A DNA stretch of 32,000 bases from Cuniculiplasma divulgatum (GCF_900083515.1 NZ_LT671858.1:1680001-1712000); one strand, 5' to 3'; counted from the first letter of the stretch, positions 3,727 to 31,506 are shown. The notes: generated by a model from the sequence alone, not told the origin. Program-made: numbers and translations.

Positions 3727-3815
3727 GAGAAAGCTCAGTTTTTAAAGGCTGGTTTCTGAAACTACGGAATTTAAAATAATGAAAGAGCTTTTAAATCATA
3801 CTGCAATTTTATTAT

Positions 3816-4202
3816 ATGAATGTGGAAATTCGAATTAAGAGTAAAAAGAGCTTTGATGATTTGTGTTCAGAAGTCCCTAAAAAAGTTAGTGAAGCAGGTT
3901 TTGGTGTACTTGCTGAGATTAAGACCAGTGATGTTCTTAAGTCAAAGGGTTATGAATATGCTCCTCTGAGAACTTTTGAGATATGCAATCCAGAATATGC
4001 TTCAAAAATACTGAATACAGATATCAGATTTGAGTCCATGCTTCCCTGCAGGATTGTGATAAAGGGAACAAAAGACGGAAGTGAGGTCATAGGGCTTCTA
4101 CCTGAGGCTATGGCGGGATTAGTTGGAAACAGAGATGCAGATGAAACAATGCTTAAGGTTCAGGAACTGGTTAAAAAAATTGTTAAAAATATTGCAGAAT
4201 AA
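3816..4202 (+). CDS. DUF302 domain protein
   Basis: 128 aa. The pattern FGVLAEI...FEICNPEYASKIL...MLPCRIVI matches my memory of the DUF302 family. TTTTAAAT box at 3789-3796 upstream. Confidence 0.7.
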   Translation: MNVEIRIKSKKSFDDLCSEVPKKVSEAGFGVLAEIKTSDVLKSKGYEYAPLRTFEICNPEYASKILNTDIRFESMLPCRIVIKGTKDGSEVIGLLPEAMAGLVGNRDADETMLKVQELVKKIVKNIAE

Positions 4203-8554: not shown

Positions 8555-10237
8555 ATGACGAGATTTGTATTAATATCGGATAGCACATTGAGTTATGAAT
8601 ACAGGAATTTTCCACTTTTAGATTTTCTACCCTGTGCGCCTGGAAAGGCAATACCAGAAAGAGTTTACAAATTCCTGAAGGGGCCTGCTCCCCCTGCTAA
8701 ACCAAATGGAGAAACAGTATTTGCACCATATGCCATAAGGAAGCTTGAAGCCAGTCTTCTTACTAAATTCAAGAGAGAAGAAATAGCAGTTGCACACGAA
8801 GATCATCTTGAGAATTTTATCAAGGATGACACGGAAATCATAGCTGTTTCAACTATGGATCCACTGGGTATCGGACCGACAACAATGTCCTACTATGCAC
8901 TTTTTGGAGGTAATCTCGATGCATGGGTAAGGAGAGACTGGGATAAACTGATGGATAGAATCAACGTGGTAAGGAAGGGAAAGAAGGCAAAACTGATCGT
9001 TGGTGGACCAGGAGTATGGGAATTTACAATTCTAAGAGACGAGATAGAGAAATATCATTACGACTATGTATTTTCAGGTGAGGCAGATGATATTGCACCA
9101 ATGTTATTTGATCAGATAGCATCAGGTGATATAGACAAAAATGTTTTCAGAACTGGTTTTGTAAGTTATGATGAAAACTTCAAAAGAGTTACAATAAATG
9201 ATCCACTTTTCCTTTCAAGAGGATTTTCCAAGGCAGCATACCCGAGACTTGAGGAGATACCTAGAATTGTTGCACCTTCCATGAAGGGAATGGTTGAAGT
9301 TATGAGAGGTTGTGGTGTGGGGTGTGATTTCTGTGAAGTAACACTAAGACCGCTTAGATATGAGCCTACCGAAAATATCGTTGCTGAACTTGAGATAAAT
9401 GCATCCGCCGGGATAACTAATGGGTGGCTTCACTCAGATGAATTCTTCGGTTACAAGCACGGCAATTTATTTGCACCAAATGAAGAAGCACTATCAGAAC
9501 TTCTAACGGCAGTAATGAATGTTAAGGGTATCAAGACGTCAAATCCGACCCATGGACGTGTTTCCATACCTGCAGGTTATCCAGAAATGATGGAAAAACT
9601 TTCAAAGATACTTAAAACAGGACCGAGGAACTGGATAGGTATCCAAACAGGAGTGGAGACTGGTAGTGATGAACTTGCCAAAAAACATATGCCTAACAAG
9701 ACCCTTCCACTCAGAATTGGTCCAGACGGAAGCTGGCTGGATATTGTCTGGCAGGGAGTATACGTAGAAACAAAGAATTACTGGAGACCGGCATTCACAT
9801 TACAGGTTGGTCAGAACGAAGAGACTGAAGATGATAACTGGCAAACGGTTGAAATGATAAACAGACTCAGTAACTCATACTCTGAAGGTGGCAGACCTTT
9901 TGAGTTTACAGTCACACCACTTGTAAATGTTCCTCTTGGGAGAATAAAGTCCAGATCGCTCAACACAAATATGCTCACAAAGGATATGATGGCAGTTTAC
10001 TATGCATCCTACAGACATCTTTCAAAAATGGCCACAAGAGATGGTTTCAGGGACACCGATGGTAACTTCTTATCAAGGATAGGAACAGGATCACTTATTT
10101 CCGGTGGTGGATATCTTATGATGAAATACATCGAAAAGAGGGCTGCAAAGATGGGAGTGGATATAGAGAAAGTGAAGCACTATGGAGTAGAGCATTCCAG
10201 GGAAATCACATCCCTATCGGCACTTGCAAGAGCATAA
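8555..10237 (+). CDS. radical SAM protein (B12-binding-like N-terminal domain class, COG1032-like)
   Basis: CxxxCxxC cluster motif RGCGVGCDFCEV (Cys codons at 9311, 9323 and 9332). An N-terminal Rossmann-like region precedes it (IIAVSTMDP, LIVGGPG). SD GGGTGA lies 5 nt upstream of the ATG at 8555. Confidence 0.85.
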   Translation: MTRFVLISDSTLSYEYRNFPLLDFLPCAPGKAIPERVYKFLKGPAPPAKPNGETVFAPYAIRKLEASLLTKFKREEIAVAHEDHLENFIKDDTEIIAVSTMDPLGIGPTTMSYYALFGGNLDAWVRRDWDKLMDRINVVRKGKKAKLIVGGPGVWEFTILRDEIEKYHYDYVFSGEADDIAPMLFDQIASGDIDKNVFRTGFVSYDENFKRVTINDPLFLSRGFSKAAYPRLEEIPRIVAPSMKGMVEVMRGCGVGCDFCEVTLRPLRYEPTENIVAELEINASAGITNGWLHSDEFFGYKHGNLFAPNEEALSELLTAVMNVKGIKTSNPTHGRVSIPAGYPEMMEKLSKILKTGPRNWIGIQTGVETGSDELAKKHMPNKTLPLRIGPDGSWLDIVWQGVYVETKNYWRPAFTLQVGQNEETEDDNWQTVEMINRLSNSYSEGGRPFEFTVTPLVNVPLGRIKSRSLNTNMLTKDMMAVYYASYRHLSKMATRDGFRDTDGNFLSRIGTGSLISGGGYLMMKYIEKRAAKMGVDIEKVKHYGVEHSREITSLSALARA

Positions 10238-11338
10238 TTGGGAAAAATAATAAAAAATCCTGAACCCCTGGAGACATCTTATATTCCAGGGTACCTTATT
10301 AACAGAGATAATGAGATAGATTCTTTACGGAAGAATGTAGTATTTCCAGTAATGAGAGGTTTATCAAGCAACATTTTTATCTACGGTCAGTCAGGTACAG
10401 GTAAAACTGTTACACTGAGATTTCTTGCATCCATGGAAACTGGATGTTATTTCCACTATGAAAATGCCATATCAGTAGGTTCCTTCAAGAGAATTGTGGT
10501 AAAGATACTTAGTTCACTTGGAAAACAGGTCTCCGAGAAACAGCCATTTGATTCTCTATTCATGGCACTCAAGAGATCTACCTCCATGCCCATTATACTT
10601 GTTGTGGATGAATGTCTGAATCTTGTAAAGACTGATCCAGATGGATTATACAATGTGCTCAGGTCGGCAGAGCTTTATGATCTCAGAATGGGTCTGATCC
10701 TCGCATCAGTTGATAATCCTGCCCTCCACATGACATCCAGGGAGATCAGAAGAATCGGTATTTTCAACGAAATGAAATTTAATAAATATTCAACGTCAGA
10801 TCTTTCAGGCATTCTGGATCACCGGTCTAAGGAATCGCTTTATGATGGTGTTATTGAGCCAGAAATAATTGATGGTATAGCGTCCATAAGCGAAAGATCT
10901 GGAAGTGCAAGGATGGCCATAGAAATATTGCAGAAAGCTGCATTCATCAGTGAATATGATAATCGAAGGACAATTGACATGGAAACTGTCAGGAAGGCTT
11001 CTGCAATGATCAACCCGTATATTACTGAAAGTAAATTGATGGAACTGGATCAGAAAGAACTGCTGATCCTCCTGTCTATCTGTCAGATACTTGAAAGAAA
11101 CATTGATGCAACCATGGAACATATAACCGATCAGATAGGAGTAAATTTTGAAACAAGGGATCAACCAATCCCAGATCTTCCTCTTATCTACAGGGCAATA
11201 AGACACCTGGAATCTCTTGATATAGTTGAGGGTGTGAGGGAAAGTTTAGGCAGGGGAAAGGGGGTTAAAAAGAGATTTTTCATGGGCGATCTACCAGTTT
11301 CAGTCCTTATACAGAAAATATTTGAAATAATAGAATGA
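10238..11338 (+). CDS. cdc6: Orc1/Cdc6 family AAA+ protein (paralog without adjacent origin-like region)
   Basis: N-terminus NPEPLETSYIPGYLINRDNEIDSL is the typical Orc1 lead-in. Walker A YGQSGTGKT, Walker B ILVVDE, sensor-2-like GSARMAIEILQKA. C-terminal winged-helix region LDQKELLILLSICQIL. The TTG start directly abuts the TAA of the radical SAM gene, and no in-frame ATG exists until codon 39. Confidence 0.85.
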   Translation: MGKIIKNPEPLETSYIPGYLINRDNEIDSLRKNVVFPVMRGLSSNIFIYGQSGTGKTVTLRFLASMETGCYFHYENAISVGSFKRIVVKILSSLGKQVSEKQPFDSLFMALKRSTSMPIILVVDECLNLVKTDPDGLYNVLRSAELYDLRMGLILASVDNPALHMTSREIRRIGIFNEMKFNKYSTSDLSGILDHRSKESLYDGVIEPEIIDGIASISERSGSARMAIEILQKAAFISEYDNRRTIDMETVRKASAMINPYITESKLMELDQKELLILLSICQILERNIDATMEHITDQIGVNFETRDQPIPDLPLIYRAIRHLESLDIVEGVRESLGRGKGVKKRFFMGDLPVSVLIQKIFEIIE

Positions 11339-11342
11339 AGAT

Positions 11343-13343
11343 TTAGAACCACCATGAAAGATCTGATTGCTTTTTTACAATGAGTTTGGAGAAGAGAAAA
11401 TCGAATGGCTCAAAGTTTCTAAGAAGAATCCTGGTGTAGAACTTCCTGTCAACCGGTTGATCATCAAAGTTAACAACCTTTTTTACTGAATCATTGATTA
11501 TTACATTCATGGATTGCCCTGGCATGATCTCGATCCCATCCTCCATCAGCGATTCCATTGATGCTTTCTGTATGTTCTTAATCATATAATCCTCATAATA
11601 TTTTGACGGCCTCAGAGTGAGTGAAAAATCGCTTTTCGGAAATCTGTCAATGTTTCTTACATATCTGTCTTTTAATTCTATATATCTTGTGTATATGGAG
11701 TGATCATTTACCCCCGGCTCAAGTTCTTCAAGTAGCCTCAGTATATCTTCCTGAGCCCTTATTACCAGTGACGGAGAATCTGAACGTCTAATCCCTATTC
11801 CTCTCACCTTGTAGCTCCCGTCATATTTCAGTCCGAAATATCTGTTTAACGCACCAAGACCAGATCTTGCTGGCAGAAACACCATCCACTTATAGTATCC
11901 ATCCATCACTATATTTATGGATGTGTTCTTCCTCACCCTTTTCAGAAGATTTTGTATGTTCCCATTTCCCTGAATAAACAGTGAATCCACAATTCCATGT
12001 ATGGGGGTGAAACCCTCAGATTCGCCTATCCTCATGGCCGTCTCAAGTGCCCATCTTCCAACGGAAGTTATGGCTTCATGCATCTCTATCTTTCCAAACC
12101 TTGCGTTCTTGAAACCTGTGTATCCAAAGGATGTTAGAAGAAGCCATTTCAGAACCTTATCCCTCAGTTCAAAATCTCTTCTTATCCTCTTATTATATTT
12201 GTATATAAGTCTCCTCTTGAGCAGTATGTCAAGTGATGAGGGGATGAATCCTTTCAAAACGCTGGTACTGTATGGATTATCCCCAGGGAGTTTTACCTGT
12301 TTATCTGTCCCTATTGTTTCTGGTGACATATTGAAATGATGCATTATGGATGGATACATTGACGAGAAGTCAATCTCGTAAACATTTCGATAAAATCCCG
12401 GGAGCGGCTGAAATACGTATCCTCCACGATCACTTTCCATGAAAGCACTCAGTGGCTTTGGATCTTCATGATCATCCTTGTCTGTAATTATAAGAATCCC
12501 TGATCTTATGGCCTCGTAGTTTTCCAGTGATGATACAGCAGTTCCAGGTGTTACCCTGCATACTGTCTCTGGAGAGAGCCCGGTTATGCGACTTATCTCA
12601 AATATGCCTTCAATGCCGCCTTCTTCATACATGAAAGAATTCCCATTTATTGATATCTTTCCATTTATGTGTATTGAAGGTGTGGAATATGAGACTCTTC
12701 CATATGACATGAATGATCTGCCACCACTTATTCTGTATCCTATCCTCTTACCGATGATCATGTCTATGCGTGAAAGGAATGTTGCCATTGAAGTTGCATC
12801 GTAGTATATTATTATGGGAAAACGCTGGAAATTATCCATAAAGAATTTCATGGCATCCATTTCGTTGGTGAATTCCACACCATTTATTTCAGCATGTTTC
12901 CATCTGTATCCATTGTATTTAACATTGAACTTCATGTAGGGTATTTCTGGATCATGATCCAGAGGGTTTTCTATGGAAAAATAGGTTAAATTACTGGCAG
13001 CCATGATCTTCAGTCCAGGATCGAGGAGACCATTATATATCCTGAATTTCCTTCCATATCCTATGCCCTTTATTATTTTTATGAATTCCCTTTCCCTGAT
13101 CTGTGGTATATAGATTCTCAAACCTTCAATTCTTGAATATACATCTCTTTCCACCGAATGTTCATAAACTATATCTCCAGCATCTTCCATTTGCCTTTCA
13201 AGAAATTCCATATCAAACTGGTCTCCGGTGACGAATATCCAGTTCCTCCAGTGGATCTTTTCATATTGTATTTTGCCATTTTCATAAATCCAGAGTGCAG
13301 GATTTTTCCCTGCTGTAAGATTGACTATGGTTCTACTGCCCAT
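11343..13343 (-). CDS. polB: family B DNA polymerase, degenerate catalytic motifs (PolB2/Dpo2-like 'inactivated PolB' type)
   Basis: Motif A EIDFSSMYPSIM (12342-12371) and VRGIGIRRSDS (the tRGxExxRRD signature) identify the fold. Motif C reads HGIVDS instead of YGDTDS (11976-11999). Motif B is KWLLLTSFGYTG. Exo I, II and III motifs are not recognisable. At 666 aa it is shorter than replicative PolB. Confidence 0.85.
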   Translation of the reverse strand: MGSRTIVNLTAGKNPALWIYENGKIQYEKIHWRNWIFVTGDQFDMEFLERQMEDAGDIVYEHSVERDVYSRIEGLRIYIPQIREREFIKIIKGIGYGRKFRIYNGLLDPGLKIMAASNLTYFSIENPLDHDPEIPYMKFNVKYNGYRWKHAEINGVEFTNEMDAMKFFMDNFQRFPIIIYYDATSMATFLSRIDMIIGKRIGYRISGGRSFMSYGRVSYSTPSIHINGKISINGNSFMYEEGGIEGIFEISRITGLSPETVCRVTPGTAVSSLENYEAIRSGILIITDKDDHEDPKPLSAFMESDRGGYVFQPLPGFYRNVYEIDFSSMYPSIMHHFNMSPETIGTDKQVKLPGDNPYSTSVLKGFIPSSLDILLKRRLIYKYNKRIRRDFELRDKVLKWLLLTSFGYTGFKNARFGKIEMHEAITSVGRWALETAMRIGESEGFTPIHGIVDSLFIQGNGNIQNLLKRVRKNTSINIVMDGYYKWMVFLPARSGLGALNRYFGLKYDGSYKVRGIGIRRSDSPSLVIRAQEDILRLLEELEPGVNDHSIYTRYIELKDRYVRNIDRFPKSDFSLTLRPSKYYEDYMIKNIQKASMESLMEDGIEIMPGQSMNVIINDSVKKVVNFDDQPVDRKFYTRILLRNFEPFDFLFSKLIVKKQSDLSWWF

Positions 13344-13560
13344 GATCTATTCTATCCATCATTTCCATGATTACTGATATGAGAAAGGCTGTCTCTGGAG
13401 ATAACTTTGAAAGGTCCATCTGAGAGGCATGAATCCTACCCATGAGGAGTATTTCATCAAATAACCTCCTGTCTCTTTCAGGCATGGAGCTCTCCATGGA
13501 CTTCATTGCCTTTGCAAGACTTTCCATAACCTGCCTTGACGTGTACGTGTTTCTGCCCAT
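13333..13560 (-). CDS. hypothetical small helical protein, translationally coupled to polB
   Basis: 75 aa. The ATG at 13560 is preceded on the minus strand by GGGGGTGATGAGAA, a strong SD with 5-nt spacing. Its 3' end overlaps the polB ATG by 11 nt, and its 5' end overlaps the upstream ORF by 58 nt. No family recognised. Confidence 0.5.
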   Translation of the reverse strand: MGRNTYTSRQVMESLAKAMKSMESSMPERDRRLFDEILLMGRIHASQMDLSKLSPETAFLISVIMEMMDRIDHGQ

Positions 13561-13994
13561 TTCTCATCACCCCCTGTATCTGGCATGTAAAATGCTCTCT
13601 TCATTAAGTGGTTTGTTCTCACACTTATGGGTGGTTTTCCAATGAATTCAACGAATGCAAAAAGTCCACGGGTAATGGGCCATACGGCCATTGCATCCAT
13701 CATATAGCTTACGGATTCTGAGTCCCAGTCCTCAACTGCCCTGCTATTAAGAACCATAGCACATGCTGTTGTCTCCTGCTCCCCCATCACCCTTATGAGC
13801 TGGTGAGATGTAAGTATTCTCTGTATCTTTACATTTCTGACTGAGAGATGTGAGAGGAATGAAGGGGAGAGCATTATTCCATCGGTTATAAGAAGGTTCA
13901 GTGAATCAACACCTTCGAATTTCTCCAGTATTTGTCCCTGAGCTATCTCAGAGAATGAATTGTATACAATTATGGTCAGTGAGCCTCTGTACAT
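13503..13994 (-). CDS. hypothetical protein, first cistron of the polB operon
   Basis: 163 aa, same strand as and overlapping the next cistron. A CTTATTAA box (plus strand 14018-14025) is centred about 27 nt upstream of the ATG, consistent with a leaderless transcript. No motif recognised with confidence. Confidence 0.45.
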   Translation of the reverse strand: MYRGSLTIIVYNSFSEIAQGQILEKFEGVDSLNLLITDGIMLSPSFLSHLSVRNVKIQRILTSHQLIRVMGEQETTACAMVLNSRAVEDWDSESVSYMMDAMAVWPITRGLFAFVEFIGKPPISVRTNHLMKRAFYMPDTGGDEKWAETRTRQGRLWKVLQRQ

Positions 13995-14017: not shown

Positions 14018-14025
14018 TTAATAAG
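14018..14025 (-). promoter_or_regulatory. candidate TATA box for the ORF163-ORF75-polB operon
   Basis: The minus strand reads CTTATTAA, centred about 27 nt upstream of the ATG at 13994, within the 100-bp divergent spacer shared with aroB. Confidence 0.3.
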
Positions 14026-14094
14026 CTTTGGCATGAGAAAAAAAATGAAAAAATGTAATTTTTCCGCGAAATTCAACACGAAAAGGTGGGCAAC

Positions 14095-15150
14095 ATGAGT
14101 GGAGAAACAGTGAGAAAAAAGCTTACCATAGGATATGATGAAACTGAGTATGTATGCGGAAAAAATGCAATAGAAGTTGAGAACGATGAGGGAACATTCA
14201 TTGTAAGTGAAACTATAAGTAATATTTACCCAGAGAAGATAAAAAGGTTTTCAGAAGGAAAAATTATCTTTGTTGAAGATGGTGAAAATTCAAAGAGAAT
14301 TGATAACTATGAAGAAGTCTGCAGGATTTTAATGGAACGAGAAGTGGAGAGGAACAGCTACCTGACATATATAGGAGGGGGTACCATTGGTGACCTTTCT
14401 GGTTTCATAGCATCCACGTACAAGAGGGGACTGAGACTGAAAGCAATACCAACAACTCTACTATCACAGATTGACAGTTCCATAGGTGGAAAGAACGGAA
14501 TAAATTTTTCTGGAGTAAAGAATGCCATAGGAACATTCAGGAACCCTGAAAGAATAGTGGCTGATACTGACTTTCTGATGAAAAATGATCAGATTATAAG
14601 AGAGGGCATGGCTGAGATAATAAAACACGGATTTTCCATGGATTACACTATAATTGAAACGCTCCTGAATAATGATATAGAAAGTGTGAAGAATGGAGAT
14701 ATTCTCAGAGATCTGATAGTGAAAAACGCAGATATAAAAGCTTCAGTGTGTAATCAAGATCCATATGAACTTCTGGGAAGAAGATATGTACTGAATTTTG
14801 GGCACACAGTAGCACATGGAATTGAAGCAATATCCAGAAACAGAATAACCCACGGAGCGGCAGTGATATATGGAATTATGTATGAAATGAAGATGTCAGA
14901 GATCTATGGAATGATGAAGTATGATGGGATAAGTATAATGAACAAACTGATGAAGAGATATGGCGTAAATAAGATAGCGGTCAGTGATGAAATGCTTGAT
15001 GGAAGCCTTTCATACATAATGAATGACAAGAAAATAAGAAATGGAAAAATTTCAATTCCAATGGCCACTAAACCGGGAATAACAAATATGGCAGAACTTA
15101 AAATAGAGGTTTTCAAGGAATTGTTTTTAAAAGCAGGGAGAATGATGTGA
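14095..15150 (+). CDS. aroB: 3-dehydroquinate synthase
   Basis: GGGTIGDLSGFIASTYKRGLRLKAIPTTLLSQIDSSIGGKNGINF is the classic AroB nucleotide/metal-binding block, and NFGHTVAHGIE is the His motif. I prefer the ATG at 14095, which has a GGTGG SD 5-6 nt upstream. The track starts at GTG 14086. Confidence 0.9.
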   Translation: MSGETVRKKLTIGYDETEYVCGKNAIEVENDEGTFIVSETISNIYPEKIKRFSEGKIIFVEDGENSKRIDNYEEVCRILMEREVERNSYLTYIGGGTIGDLSGFIASTYKRGLRLKAIPTTLLSQIDSSIGGKNGINFSGVKNAIGTFRNPERIVADTDFLMKNDQIIREGMAEIIKHGFSMDYTIIETLLNNDIESVKNGDILRDLIVKNADIKASVCNQDPYELLGRRYVLNFGHTVAHGIEAISRNRITHGAAVIYGIMYEMKMSEIYGMMKYDGISIMNKLMKRYGVNKIAVSDEMLDGSLSYIMNDKKIRNGKISIPMATKPGITNMAELKIEVFKELFLKAGRMM

Positions 15151-15151
15151 G

Positions 15152-15979
15152 ATGATGTATGGACTTCTTGGATCACCCGTTGGAAAGTCCTGGAGTGAGG
15201 TTCTATTCAACAGAATATTCGAACTGGAAGAAAATAATAATATTTACACAGCAATAAATGTTAGTCCTGTAACATTGAAACGGTTAATGGAAAAAATGGA
15301 TGTGAGCTTCCAGGGCTTCAACGTGACAATTCCATATAAGGAAGATATCCTCAGGTATACTGAAAACAGGGACCCGCTTGTGTGGAAGGCTGGTGTTTCA
15401 AATGTTATAAAGCGTGAGGGAAATGGTTTTACAGCCTTCAACACAGATTATGCTGGAATTGAGGAGCTATTCACTAAGAATGGTGTGAGGGTGGATGGAA
15501 AAAGAGTTGCTATAGCTGGAGCTGGTGGAGTTGCCAGAATAATGATCTATTACATACTTACAAACTTTAGCCCTGACACCATGCATATATTTACCAGAAA
15601 TCCAGAAATAACCAGAAAAAAAATTAAGGGAACATGGCAGTACGGGAACATGAAAATTAGAAGTTACGATGATATGGAAAAATATGATGTCCTGATCAAT
15701 TGCACACCACTGGGAATGAATGAAGATGACCAATCACCGTTCTCTCCATATTTTTATGACGAAAAGGCCACTGCCATAGATCTCACATACCAGTATGATG
15801 AAACAAAATTCATGAAATATGCTGCTGAAAGTGGAGGCAGGGCAATCAATGGCAGGGATATGTTCTTCAGACAGGCAGAAGAGACTTACAGGATCTTTTT
15901 CATGGATGAATGCGAAAGGGAAATATTCAGCAGGGCAAGAGGTGATACTTTAAAATGGATGACGGAACGCTTATCCTGA
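15152..15979 (+). CDS. aroE: shikimate 5-dehydrogenase
   Basis: YGLLGSPVGKSWSE N-terminus, GFNVTIPYKEDI and GAGGVARI (NADP Rossmann motif). The start lies 1 nt after the aroB stop. Confidence 0.85.
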   Translation: MMYGLLGSPVGKSWSEVLFNRIFELEENNNIYTAINVSPVTLKRLMEKMDVSFQGFNVTIPYKEDILRYTENRDPLVWKAGVSNVIKREGNGFTAFNTDYAGIEELFTKNGVRVDGKRVAIAGAGGVARIMIYYILTNFSPDTMHIFTRNPEITRKKIKGTWQYGNMKIRSYDDMEKYDVLINCTPLGMNEDDQSPFSPYFYDEKATAIDLTYQYDETKFMKYAAESGGRAINGRDMFFRQAEETYRIFFMDECEREIFSRARGDTLKWMTERLS

Positions 15980-15981
15980 AA

Positions 15982-16794
15982 ATGAATTCGGGGATATCTG
16001 TTCTCAGTGCTTTCGTGAACTGGAAAGGGGCAGCACTGGCACTGGACTATCAGATGGAAATAATGGCAAGAAAAGGAGAGGCAAAGAAAAACCAATGGAA
16101 TATAAGGAGGATGCTCTCCATATTGAAAAGCCAGTATGGGAAGGATTCAGAACTGCAGATAGATGTAAACAGGAAGATACCTTCAGGGATGGGGCTTAAG
16201 AGCAGCAGTGCTCTGGTTTCTGGAGTTGTGAAGGCTTATTCCCTATTCAATGACATTAAAATGGAAATAGAAGATATTGTGACAGTATCAAGCCGAATAT
16301 CAAGACAGATAAGAGTCTCAGCCACTGGAGCATCTGATGATCTATATGCTTCGGTGCTTGGTGGATTGTGCATAACAGATAACAGGAATGCGAAGCTGCT
16401 CAGGCATTACAGGATTAAGGAAAAACATTACATAATAATAACCTCGAAAGGAAGAAGATCGAGTTATGATTTTGGCAAGATTGATCTATCATTCCTCAGG
16501 AATGCATATGAGAGAATGTTTCAGAGACTGAATTCATACAACTTCGAGGATATTGCCATCATGAATGGATTTTATCTTGGAACAATATCGGGTATCAATA
16601 TGCCGGGTGAGATATTGAACAAACTCAGGTTCAACATAATGGGAATAAATGGTAAAGGGCCTTCCCTCTTTCTTCAGTATGAAAACCCAAAAACACTGGA
16701 AAGAGACGTGGAAATTCTCAAAAAAGATAATGTGGGCTTTCTTGTTGCCTCGAGTACAAACATTTCTTCATCTCATGAGTGGAAAAATGAGTAG
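15982..16794 (+). CDS. aroK: archaeal-type shikimate kinase (GHMP kinase superfamily)
   Basis: GHMP motif II PSGMGLKSSSALVSGV. Position between aroE and aroA. The ATG at 15982 (MNSGISVLSAF) lies 2 nt after the aroE stop; the track start at 15955 would overlap aroE. Confidence 0.8.
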   Translation: MNSGISVLSAFVNWKGAALALDYQMEIMARKGEAKKNQWNIRRMLSILKSQYGKDSELQIDVNRKIPSGMGLKSSSALVSGVVKAYSLFNDIKMEIEDIVTVSSRISRQIRVSATGASDDLYASVLGGLCITDNRNAKLLRHYRIKEKHYIIITSKGRRSSYDFGKIDLSFLRNAYERMFQRLNSYNFEDIAIMNGFYLGTISGINMPGEILNKLRFNIMGINGKGPSLFLQYENPKTLERDVEILKKDNVGFLVASSTNISSSHEWKNE

Positions 16795-18043
16795 GATTTT
16801 AATTCCGCAAGAACTAAATGGAAAGGTGGATGCCCCTTCTTCCAAGAGCATGTCACAGAGGGTTTTATTGCTTTCTGCATTCCTTCCGGGTCACAAACGA
16901 ATTGGACCGATCTCTGGATGCGATGACGAAATAATTGCACTGGGAATATGCAGTTCTAACGGAATGAAGATAATAAAGGACGGAAAATATTACAATATTT
17001 ACGGTTCATTCACTAATCCGGAGTTAATAAATGTTGGAGAATCTGGTACTGCTCTCAGAATGGTGCTTGGCCTTCTTGCATCAAGAAGATGCAGTTGCGC
17101 AATTGAGACTGAAGGGAAGCTTTTGGAAAGACCATTGAAACCACTTATAATTTCACTGGAAAGCATTGGATGCAGATTTTCAATGAATGGCAGAACACTC
17201 ATTTTTGATGGTACTAATGCCAAATATGTGAGTGAAATATCCATAAACGGAGAATTGAGTTCCCAGTTCACCAGTTCTATTCTTTTATACATGGCACTCA
17301 ACCCCATAGACGAAAAGATAGTACATATTGAAGGAGAGATTAATTCAGAAGGATATCTAAATATGACTGCAGATATACTTAGAAAATTGGGGCTGACCAT
17401 AAAAAGAACCGGAAGTGATTTCATTATAAATGGAACGCTGAATGAAATGAATACTTCATTTGAAATAGAAGGAGATTATTCATCAGCCTCATTCCTTATT
17501 GCAGCTGGACTATTACTATCAGGAAAAGGAATAGAGATAAATAATCTGAAAAAGGAAAGCATGCAACCTGATGCAAATATTCTAAATTTGCTTAATGGAC
17601 TCCTGCAATATGGAGAAAATTCAATAATTGCCATGAAAAAAGATATTACTAGTATGCTAGAGGTTGATGTCAACATAAATCCAGATCTGGCACCAGTTAT
17701 AGCCCTTCTTGGAATGTTTTCCCAAAAGGGAGCCAGCATTAAAAATTCAGATAGACTATCAGGAAAGGAGAGTGACAGGAAAATGGCCATTATTCAAATA
17801 GCTGAAGCCTTTGGGTCGGATGTAACTGAAGAAGACGAAACTCTGTATATTGGTCCATGCCGAGACGATATTTCACCTGCACTCCCAATCTCATTAGATC
17901 ACAGAATTGTTATGGAGACCATTCTGGCTCAGTCTATGGTATCAGAGAAATTCATTGTACACAATCCTGAAAGTCTTAACAAGAGTTATCCTTCATTTAT
18001 AGATGATTTAATTTCTCTTGGATTTAAGGAGGAATTGGAATAA
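16787..18043 (+). CDS. aroA: 3-phosphoshikimate 1-carboxyvinyltransferase (EPSP synthase)
   Basis: LNGKVDAPSSKSMSQRVLLLSAF, GESGTALRMVLGL and DHRIVM motifs. The track start at 16649 would overlap the shikimate kinase gene by 146 nt. ATGs at 16787 (8-nt overlap) or 16775 are the likely starts. Confidence 0.9.
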   Translation: MSRILIPQELNGKVDAPSSKSMSQRVLLLSAFLPGHKRIGPISGCDDEIIALGICSSNGMKIIKDGKYYNIYGSFTNPELINVGESGTALRMVLGLLASRRCSCAIETEGKLLERPLKPLIISLESIGCRFSMNGRTLIFDGTNAKYVSEISINGELSSQFTSSILLYMALNPIDEKIVHIEGEINSEGYLNMTADILRKLGLTIKRTGSDFIINGTLNEMNTSFEIEGDYSSASFLIAAGLLLSGKGIEINNLKKESMQPDANILNLLNGLLQYGENSIIAMKKDITSMLEVDVNINPDLAPVIALLGMFSQKGASIKNSDRLSGKESDRKMAIIQIAEAFGSDVTEEDETLYIGPCRDDISPALPISLDHRIVMETILAQSMVSEKFIVHNPESLNKSYPSFIDDLISLGFKEELE

Positions 18044-31434: not shown

Positions 31435-31506
31435 GGGCCGGTAGATCAGGGGTAGATCGCTTGCTTCGCAAGCAAGAGGCCTCGGGTTCAAATCCCGACC
31501 GGTCCA
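31435..31506 (+). tRNA. tRNA-Ala: tRNA-Ala (anticodon CGC)
   Basis: Manual fold: GGGCCGG-TA-GATC-AGGGGTA-GATC-G-CTTGC-TTCGCAA-GCAAG-AGGCC-TCGGG-TTCAAAT-CCCGA-CCGGTCC-A. All stems pair. The G3:U70 wobble (alanine identity element) is present, and the anticodon loop reads TT-CGC-AA. 72 nt, no intron, CCA not encoded. It is the only G+C-rich island in an AT-rich spacer. Confidence 0.93.

Follow-up and report, generated by a model that had tools for sequence, protein, structure and literature searches.

The DNA analyzed here is a 32,000-nucleotide stretch of the genome of Cuniculiplasma divulgatum (Thermoplasmatales), which we call the window. Its minus strand carries three overlapping genes that encode, in this order, a 163-amino-acid protein (ORF163), a 75-amino-acid protein (ORF75), and a 666-amino-acid family-B DNA polymerase, and a gene of the Orc1/Cdc6 family converges on the last of these (Table 1). 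We read the locus, with a probability of roughly 0.85, as the C. divulgatum copy of the archaeal PolB2 "mutasome" operon of type 1a, that is, iRadA-PPB2-PolB2 (iRadA standing for inactivated RadA, arCOG07763/04294/08101), together with its usual convergent orc1/cdc6 neighbor. The three open reading frames (ORFs) had been proposed in a first-pass annotation, and reading at base level bears them out along with their overlaps of 58 nucleotides (nt) and 11 nt (the latter at 13333 to 13343). Database records list ORF163 and ORF75 as "hypothetical" and call the polymerase a "type B DNA-directed DNA polymerase." For comparison, 80 genomic loci were retrieved, which range from Thermoplasmatales to Methanomassiliicoccales and Methanoregula.

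Table 1. Features of the PolB2 operon and its immediate surroundings, in positions of the window (SD, Shine-Dalgarno; PIP, PCNA-interacting protein)
Feature	Position	Strand	Description	Basis
PolB2	11343..13343	-	Third cistron, 666 aa; Dpo2-like family-B DNA polymerase with decayed exonuclease domain	ORF, profile, alignment
PIP box	11346..11369	-	QSDLSWWF, canonical, at the PolB2 C terminus; putative PCNA-binding motif	Motif pattern, translation
KxY motif	11838..11846	-	NRY; R501 and Y502 invariant	Translation, alignment
Motif C	11982..11999	-	HGIVDS; DTD reads IVD, second Asp (D453) kept and invariant	Translation, alignment
Motif B	12123..12149	-	KWLLLTSFG; K399 kept, N->L, S->T, Y->F	Translation, alignment
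Motif A	12342..12377	-	EIDFSSMYPSIM; catalytic D325 retained and invariant	Translation, alignment
D(K/R) motif	12420..12431	-	DRGG, PolB2-specific, in the loop before motif A; D305, G307, and G308 invariant	Family alignment, translation
ORF75 (PPB2, arCOG07300)	13333..13560	-	Second cistron, 75 aa; small three-helix PolB2 partner	ORF, motif, model, synteny
PPB2 N-terminal arm	13534..13560	-	MGRNTYTSR (Arg3, Arg9)	Family conservation, DNA reading
ORF163 (probable iRadA)	13503..13994	-	First cistron, 163 aa; very probably a highly degenerate, ATPase-dead RadA homolog	ORF, position, profiles, model
Dual-coding overlap	13503..13560	-	58 nt; ORF163 C-terminal tail (KWAETRTRQGRLWKVLQRQ, 19 residues) overprinted on the PPB2 N terminus	Base-level reading
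SD for PPB2	13566..13574	-	GGGGGTGAT, 5 nt before the ORF75 ATG and within the ORF163 coding sequence	DNA reading
ORF163 core motif	13797..13826	-	IQRILTSHQL, the family's best-conserved stretch, with invariant R59 and Q65; counterpart of "ARAFNxxHQ" in RadA/Rad51	Family alignment, hhalign
TATA-like box	14018..14025	-	CTTATTAA, centered ~27 nt upstream of the ORF163 ATG	DNA reading, locus comparison
Promoter-proximal element	14028..14056	-	Tandem (C/T)TCATTT(T) units (ACATTTTTTCATTTTTTTTCTCATGCC); candidate operator	Locus comparison
Orc1/Cdc6-family gene	10238..11338	+	AAA+ gene, convergent, 4 nt from the polB2 stop; candidate regulator	Pfam, NCBIfam

According to the first-pass annotation, the operon context was not explained by what is known of PolB2. 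That claim falls, because both the operon and the complex have already been described: the linkage of PolB2, arCOG07300, and inactivated RadA, with an adjacent orc1/cdc6 gene, was published in 2013/2014 (PMC4104785) and modeled in 2025 (PMC11791011). In Makarova (2014; PMC4104785), PolB2 was predicted to share an operon with an inactivated RadA and with the arCOG07300 protein, which is small and alpha-helical; arORC2 (orc1/cdc6) was reported next to this operon in many euryarchaea, and one iRadA group was described as so deteriorated that HHpred alone sees its similarity to RadA. Timinskas (2025; PMC11791011) renamed arCOG07300 PPB2, catalogued the gene orders (type 1a being iRadA-PPB2-PolB2), described iRadA-PPB2 fusions with internal SD motifs, and modeled a PolB2:iRadA:PPB2x3 heteropentamer. 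The same work describes three features: Arg3 and Arg9 in a conserved "MGRT" arm at the PPB2 N terminus, contact of this arm with the D(K/R) motif of PolB2, and clamp-binding motifs on either iRadA or PolB2.

The C. divulgatum locus shares with the type 1a mutasome (Makarova & Koonin 2013; PMC4104785; PMC11791011) its gene order, orientation, tight coupling, and orc1/cdc6 neighbor; the MGR(T/N) arm and three helices of PPB2; and the IxD motif C, D(K/R)GG motif, and decayed exonuclease of PolB2. A small, ATPase-dead protein sits at the iRadA position, and relatives have iRadA-PPB2 fusions with an SD before the PPB2 part. The locus differs in that its presumed iRadA stands at the extreme of decay, with 163 amino acids and no database-significant similarity to RadA; in that the tail of this protein is overprinted over 58 nt on the PPB2 start; and in that the PIP box is on PolB2, which is the rarer arrangement according to PMC11791011.

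The two small ORFs are genuine and tightly coupled, and they are very probably physical partners of PolB2, much as the first-pass annotation had supposed in proposing accessory subunits; the same trio was published between 2013 and 2025. The order ORF163-ORF75-polB and the frame relation between the genes are kept in dozens of genomes, and homologs of the small ORFs occur at 49 to 99% identity. Measured against a 90%-identical relative (locus L001), the ratio of nonsynonymous to synonymous substitution rates (dN/dS) is 0.12 for ORF163, 0.07 for ORF75, and 0.075 for PolB2, so that all three genes are under purifying selection. These values remove the concern that the small ORFs might be evolving neutrally.

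The polymerase matches Pfam DNA_pol_B (E = 1.9e-15) and, over residues 15 to 657, narrowly passes NCBIfam equivalog NF004416, a curated Thermoplasmatales-type PolB of 665 amino acids (519.6 bits against a cutoff of 516). Matches to archaeal PolB structures by phmmer and by profile reach E = 1e-51, with the palm, fingers, and thumb homologous. The NF004416 match and the IVD reading of motif C uphold the earlier assignment to the PolB2/Dpo2 clade. The motif register of the first-pass annotation likewise proved right on alignment to solved PolBs, in which ihGIVDSlf pairs with iyGDTDSlf, lKwllltsFGy with lKvmanamYGy, and nRY with kRY, the last confirming its reading of KxY as NRY; neither DTD nor KxxxNSxYG is intact. 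Motif A was recognized correctly, but the range given for it (12342 to 12371) spans just DFSSMYPSIM, EIDFSSMYPSIM occupying 12342 to 12377; motif C was correctly read as HGIVDS with the second Asp alone kept, as in most PolB2s, and by translation it lies at 11982 to 11999. In a 14-member PolB2 family alignment, D325, K399, H449, G450, V452, D453, S454, R501, and Y502 are all invariant, as are K289, D291, and E293 within a conserved region at residues 280 to 304 (ILIITDKDDHEDPKPLSAFMES). This region is a candidate for the beta-alpha motif, similar to the Rad51 oligomerization motif, with which PolB2s are described to bind iRadA. The D(K/R) motif that follows this region contacts the PPB2 arm in published models (PMC11791011, section 3.3.2).

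Decay of the exonuclease domain is confirmed, because DNA_pol_B_exo1 gives no Pfam match in PolB2 at E <= 1 and because all PDB alignments of the family profile to solved PolBs begin at residue 239 or later, leaving homology from about residue 240 onward. The first-pass annotation was therefore right about the loss of the exonuclease; the sites it named for Exo I, Exo II, and Exo III (KFNVKY, YDATSMATF, and YEEGG) were guesses that are neither confirmed nor replaced here, no alignment reaching the N-terminal 240 residues. At the other end of the protein, the strict PIP pattern found in C. divulgatum recurs in 5 of the 80 relatives, and looser L-x-x-aromatic tails are common. A C-terminal clamp-binding motif is common, though not general, among iRadAs; those of Methanomassiliicoccales end in QTTL(D/E)EF, in agreement with the published pattern in which either iRadA or PolB2 carries the motif.

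ORF75 is PPB2. The first-pass annotation could name no motif in it, but the PPB2 MGR(T/N) arm with Arg3 and Arg9 is present: M1, G2, R3, N4, and T5 never vary across the ORF75 family, and conservation of R9 is 90% or higher. The published models (PMC11791011, section 3.3.1) place this arm close to the DNA, inserted between PolB2 and iRadA. The AlphaFold2 model of ORF75 (predicted local distance difference test score, pLDDT, of 71) has a free arm at residues 1 to 7, followed by helices at residues 8 to 24, 28 to 47, and 55 to 72. PPB2 is described as a homotrimer with a coiled-coil pillar. A protein of 72 to 92 amino acids starting with MGR(T/N/S) lies directly upstream of polB2 in nearly all 80 loci. 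By tblastn, ORF75 is similar to the PPB2 of locus L074 (E = 3.8e-7), whose iRadA passes the Pfam Rad51 threshold. ORF75 itself has no match in NCBIfam or in a copy of Pfam without PF26485; Pfam PF26485.1, probably a recently added family for PPB2/arCOG07300, is assigned to its homologs P0011 to P0019 in precomputed annotation. Foldseek matches of the ORF75 model, such as HIV integrase fragments and the like, were dismissed as noise. In two loci (L072 and L075), the PolB2 homolog has neither a PPB2 nor an iRadA ORF next to it on its upstream side, possibly a sign of operon decay or relocation.

ORF163, which is 100% identical to the C. divulgatum "hypothetical protein" WP_021790374.1, is in all likelihood an extremely decayed RadA homolog. 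A protein of its family lies upstream of PPB2, at the iRadA position, in about 68 loci, and an ORF163-like domain is fused to a PPB2 domain in protein P0152 and in loci L015 (3321 to 3980) and L031 (upstream of 3729 to 3974). The internal PPB2 "start" of the L015 fusion reads VGRTVPTVRQ. In loci L071 and L074, the proteins at the iRadA position score above the Pfam gathering threshold for Rad51, and their profile matches RadA, Rad51, and DMC1 structures with E values down to 2e-8. When a hidden Markov model (HMM) of the ORF163 family, blind to position, was compared with 2,406 ORFs, its three best nonfamily matches were the iRadA-position ORFs of L079, L074, and L078. In the reciprocal direction, ORF163-family proteins make up 19 of the 27 best nonself matches of the Rad51-positive iRadA profile, against 2.8% of the pool, all of these ranks being sub-threshold and the 19 of 27 matches not being independent of one another.

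The first-pass annotation had seen no nameable motif in ORF163 either, but a RadA-like RxxTxxQ core is kept. By hhalign against the Rad51-positive iRadAs, IQRILTSHQL aligns to IARAFTAHQL (P = 0.005), a segment that itself aligns to YARAFNSNHQM of RadA, and the relaxed alignment between ORF163 and iRadA is collinear over 139 columns. Global mode returned a meaningless alignment and was discarded. A Walker A pattern (GxxxxGK[ST]) occurs nowhere in the 163 residues, and the position equivalent to the Walker B Asp is N83 (VLNS) in the relaxed alignment. The N-terminal helical (helix-hairpin-helix, HhH) domain of RadA is also lacking, the protein being too short for it and its AlphaFold2 model opening directly on a beta/alpha core, with alternating beta and alpha elements from the start. 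Foldseek matches of this model, at a best E of 0.012, include UvsX, FlaH, and many KaiC chains, all of the RecA superfamily. In some Methanoregula, the iRadA gene appears to be fragmented into ORFs of ~70 amino acids (L077, 2909 to 3124; L080, 2939 to 3170). Another oddity is P0010, a 167-amino-acid metagenomic protein that carries PF08501 (shikimate dehydrogenase N-terminal domain) and whose residues 123 to 164 are 95% identical to ORF163 residues 1 to 42; its contig is 1.2 kb long, and the protein is probably a chimera created by gene calling or assembly.

The overlap between iRadA and PPB2 is clade-specific in length (25, 37, 55, or 58 nt) and always in one relative frame, and therefore the same bases encode iRadA "W-x-E" and PPB2 "MGR." Comparison of the 58-nt overlap of the window with that of locus L002 gives five synonymous substitutions and one nonsynonymous substitution in the PPB2 frame versus none and six in the ORF163 frame. 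Small as these numbers are, the substitutions follow the PPB2 frame, and so the PPB2 arm is the constrained reading and the ORF163 tail largely a by-product. Within the tail segment QGRLWKVL, whose codons are dual-coded with PPB2 residues S8-R9-Q10-V11, QGRL was considered as a PIP-like motif; we rejected it as primary evidence because it is dual-coded with S-R-Q-V and evolves as a passenger frame.

Several observations weigh against identifying the locus as a mutasome operon. Direct searches with ORF163 gave no match in Pfam or NCBIfam and no significant similarity to RadA. Its family profile, compared with PDB sequences, placed RPA3 and the BK-channel RCK domain on top at E values of 0.08 to 1, chance-level matches to unrelated proteins that we set aside. 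The pLDDT of its model is moderate, at 61, and unrelated flavodoxin-like folds are mixed into its Foldseek list. None of the Foldseek matches reaches E <= 0.001, and the enrichment of the RecA superfamily among them is suggestive only. The ORF75 model had no significant Foldseek match; against the PDB, the best E was 3.9 with no sigma factors, and the sigma-factor-like similarity that has been reported was not reproduced. Motif B and KxY of PolB2 are more diverged than in canonical PolBs, and activity in this lineage is not guaranteed. Finally, our view of activity, stoichiometry, PCNA binding, and damage induction is carried over from Sulfolobus and from computational studies in the literature. 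Could the small ORFs then be chance or miscalled frames, leaving polB2 as the sole gene? The absence of Pfam and NCBIfam matches and an overlap that is unusually long at 58 nt might suggest so, but the homologs, the conserved order and frame relation, and the dN/dS values effectively refute this idea, both models have defined secondary structure, and PF26485 on the ORF75 homologs speaks against it as well; we give it practically no weight. The main alternative to the iRadA assignment is instead non-orthologous displacement, in which ORF163 would be a small alpha/beta protein, specific to its lineage and unrelated to RadA, that took the place of iRadA in acidophilic Thermoplasmatales and may still partner PolB2. 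This would explain why direct searches find no significant RadA match in sequence or structure; the family is also tiny, with 18 relatives among 1.84 billion representatives in an exhaustive profile search, and lumazine/riboflavin synthase and BioF folds score equal to RecA-like folds. We nevertheless consider displacement unlikely: the sub-threshold HMM matches are reciprocal and position-specific, hhalign hits exactly the ARAFNxxHQ-equivalent motif in a collinear alignment, the PPB2 fusions are as described for iRadA, and there is a precedent in the iRadA arCOG that is detectable by HHpred alone (Makarova 2014, PMC4104785).

A different kind of doubt concerns catalysis. The first-pass annotation spoke of an "inactivated PolB," and this merges with an alternative raised by Makarova (2014; PMC4104785), in which the polymerase would be catalytically dead in this lineage and the PolB2/iRadA/PPB2 complex and Orc1/Cdc6 would act nonenzymatically, e.g., by regulating origin use or stalled forks. 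The replacement of the first motif-C Asp by Ile, the N->L and Y->F changes in motif B, and the change of KxY to NRY are all in keeping with such a role, as is the tight, conserved linkage to orc1/cdc6. Yet Sulfolobus Dpo2, with IID at motif C, polymerizes robustly without proofreading and extends mismatched and lesion-paired termini (Feng 2022, PMC8764526). The S. islandicus enzyme, with the same first motif-C Asp->Ile change, has lost its exonuclease alone, and S. solfataricus Dpo2, which lacks this Asp too, is likewise robustly active (PMC8764526). The family to which the C. divulgatum enzyme belongs is under strong purifying selection, and its remaining metal-ligand and dNTP-binding residues (D325, D453, K399, R501, and Y502) do not vary. 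Moreover, the dpo2-linked Orc1 paralog of Sulfolobus does not act as an initiator but regulates transcription in the damage response (PMC6061795). A dead polymerase thus seems quite improbable, and PolB2 is probably not inactive.

The mutasome operon most likely encodes a damage-tolerance extender polymerase that would work as a PCNA-tethered PolB2-iRadA-PPB2(3) complex, whose formation, activity, and regulation we infer from the literature. By analogy with the published systems, PolB2 would be a proofreading-deficient but catalytically competent extender of mismatched or lesion-paired primer termini in translesion synthesis. Its partners in the complex would be a PPB2 trimer (ORF75) and a single RadA-like subunit that is dead as an ATPase (ORF163), and, as modeled, the MGR arm of PPB2 would be close to the DNA, with PolB2 on one side and iRadA on the other. 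The C-terminal PIP box of PolB2 probably brings the complex to PCNA. To our knowledge, there is no experimental structure of a PolB2 mutasome complex.

Comparison with characterized polymerases puts this proposal in perspective. Dpo2 of Saccharolobus/Sulfolobus islandicus (PMC7390963, PMC8764526) has the same Asp->Ile change at the first motif-C position, no exonuclease active site, and PPB2 and iRadA partners. It differs in belonging to another phylum, in being the sole assayed enzyme, and in its length of about 550 to 630 amino acids, with annotation as split genes in some strains; damage induction, too, has been shown in Sulfolobales only. The E. coli Pol V mutasome (UmuD'2C-RecA-ATP) is similar, as pointed out in PMC11791011, in combining a translesion polymerase, a small oligomeric accessory protein, and a RecA-family subunit under damage-responsive control. 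Pol V is, in contrast, a Y-family and not a B-family enzyme, it uses active RecA-ATP and not a dedicated dead paralog, UmuD' is unrelated to PPB2, and regulation is by LexA. The Sulfolobus PolB1 holoenzyme reportedly also joins an archaeal B-family polymerase to two small accessory subunits, PBP1 and PBP2, as here. PolB1 is, however, said to be replicative, with intact catalytic and exonuclease sites, and its accessory proteins are reportedly unrelated to those of C. divulgatum. We know of no operon linkage of the PolB2 type for PolB1, PBP1, and PBP2.

The translation signals of the operon differ from cistron to cistron. The strong SD that the first-pass annotation placed before the ORF75 ATG is confirmed in the DNA, and in 40 of 58 loci PPB2 is preceded by an SD match of 5 nt or longer, versus 7.6% of background positions. 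Before the first cistron, an SD is found in 7 of 68 loci (10%), which is the background level. Together with the spacing of the TATA-like box, these frequencies suggest a leaderless or near-leaderless first cistron, an SD-driven second, and a coupled third. The transcript would then probably start just upstream of ORF163, PPB2 would be translated from the strong internal SD within the iRadA coding sequence, and PolB2 translation would be coupled through the 11-nt overlap.

In loci L001 to L069, tandem (C/T)TCATTT(T) units occur just upstream of the TATA-like box, some 80 to 40 nt ahead of the iRadA start. On both strands of the 80 loci, 35 of 36 occurrences of the strict pattern TCATTT-N1-4-TCATTT fall within 100 nt upstream of an iRadA start, and TCATTT units are 19-fold enriched in the promoter region. 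The element is kept in Thermoplasmatales loci with or without aroB and is therefore independent of the upstream neighbor. A divergent aroB promoter was considered as an explanation for this block and rejected, the block being present where aroB is not a neighbor.

These repeats invite comparison with Sulfolobales, in which dpo2 induction needs the Orc1/Cdc6 paralog Orc1-2, a binder of ANTTTC in damage-responsive promoters (Sun 2018, PMC6061795). Both systems have a dpo2-associated Orc1/Cdc6 paralog and a short T-rich motif just upstream of the core promoter, and many of the Thermoplasmatales units (CATTTTCTCATTT) contain ATTTTC, which fits ANTTTC. ANTTTC occurs in 33 of 69 promoter regions (48%), versus 12.7% of background windows; in the C. 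divulgatum promoter, the repeats contain none, and one AATTTC lies at about -79. The dominant conserved element of the Thermoplasmatales promoters differs in being a tandem TCATTT(T) repeat. Expression of the operon is probably DNA damage inducible, and the tandem repeats, as a candidate operator, may possibly be where the neighboring Orc1/Cdc6 paralog exerts such control.

Already in the literature are the operon, its accessory subunits, its link to orc1/cdc6, and the finding that the polymerase is not dead. Potentially new are only the TCATTT repeats specific to the promoter of this operon and the ultra-reduced iRadA with its overprinted tail. We propose tentatively, and with less than even confidence, that the Orc1/Cdc6 paralog controls the mutasome by way of the TCATTT(T) repeats, which would be its operator, and, separately, that the ORF163 family (about 140 to 165 amino acids) is the most reduced RadA derivative known, with a tail made by overprinting on PPB2. 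If true, the operator and Orc1/Cdc6 would make up a euryarchaeal equivalent of the damage-response circuit that Orc1-2 and ANTTTC form in Sulfolobus, and the cis element could be used to find the DNA damage regulon of Thermoplasmatales. In the archaea where this has been tested, damage-induced mutagenesis runs mainly through the PolB2 mutasome, and the C. divulgatum complex would offer biochemistry a compact version from a cultivable, moderately thermophilic acidophile. Naming the two C. divulgatum "hypothetical proteins" (WP_021790374.1 and the 75-amino-acid protein) as the probable iRadA subunit and the PPB2 subunit corrects their annotation.

The Orc1/Cdc6-family neighbor matches Cdc6_lid (E = 3.7e-16), AAA_22, and, weakly, Cdc6_C in Pfam, and TIGR02928 in NCBIfam (E = 2e-42, below the curated cutoff), in keeping with the AAA+ domain, lid, and winged helix of Orc1/Cdc6 proteins. 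It falls far below all initiator equivalog cutoffs, which may suggest membership in the noninitiator arORC2/Orc1-2 clade. In about 50 loci, the gene is convergent with and adjacent to polB2, in line with the association of orc1/cdc6 with the PolB2 operon reported in PMC4104785 and PMC11791011. A 560-amino-acid radical-SAM-domain protein (weak Pfam match; 8555 to 10237) abuts orc1/cdc6 with no gap, its stop ending at 10237 and the predicted TTG start of orc1/cdc6 lying at 10238, and the two genes may be cotranscribed.

On the other side of the operon, a run of plus-strand genes (14086 to 18043) diverges from it. The first of these encodes 3-dehydroquinate synthase (Pfam DHQ_synthase), and the ORFs that follow look, by eye, like more shikimate pathway genes. 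A single tRNA gene at 31435 to 31506 is the sole Rfam match at the gathering threshold in the window.

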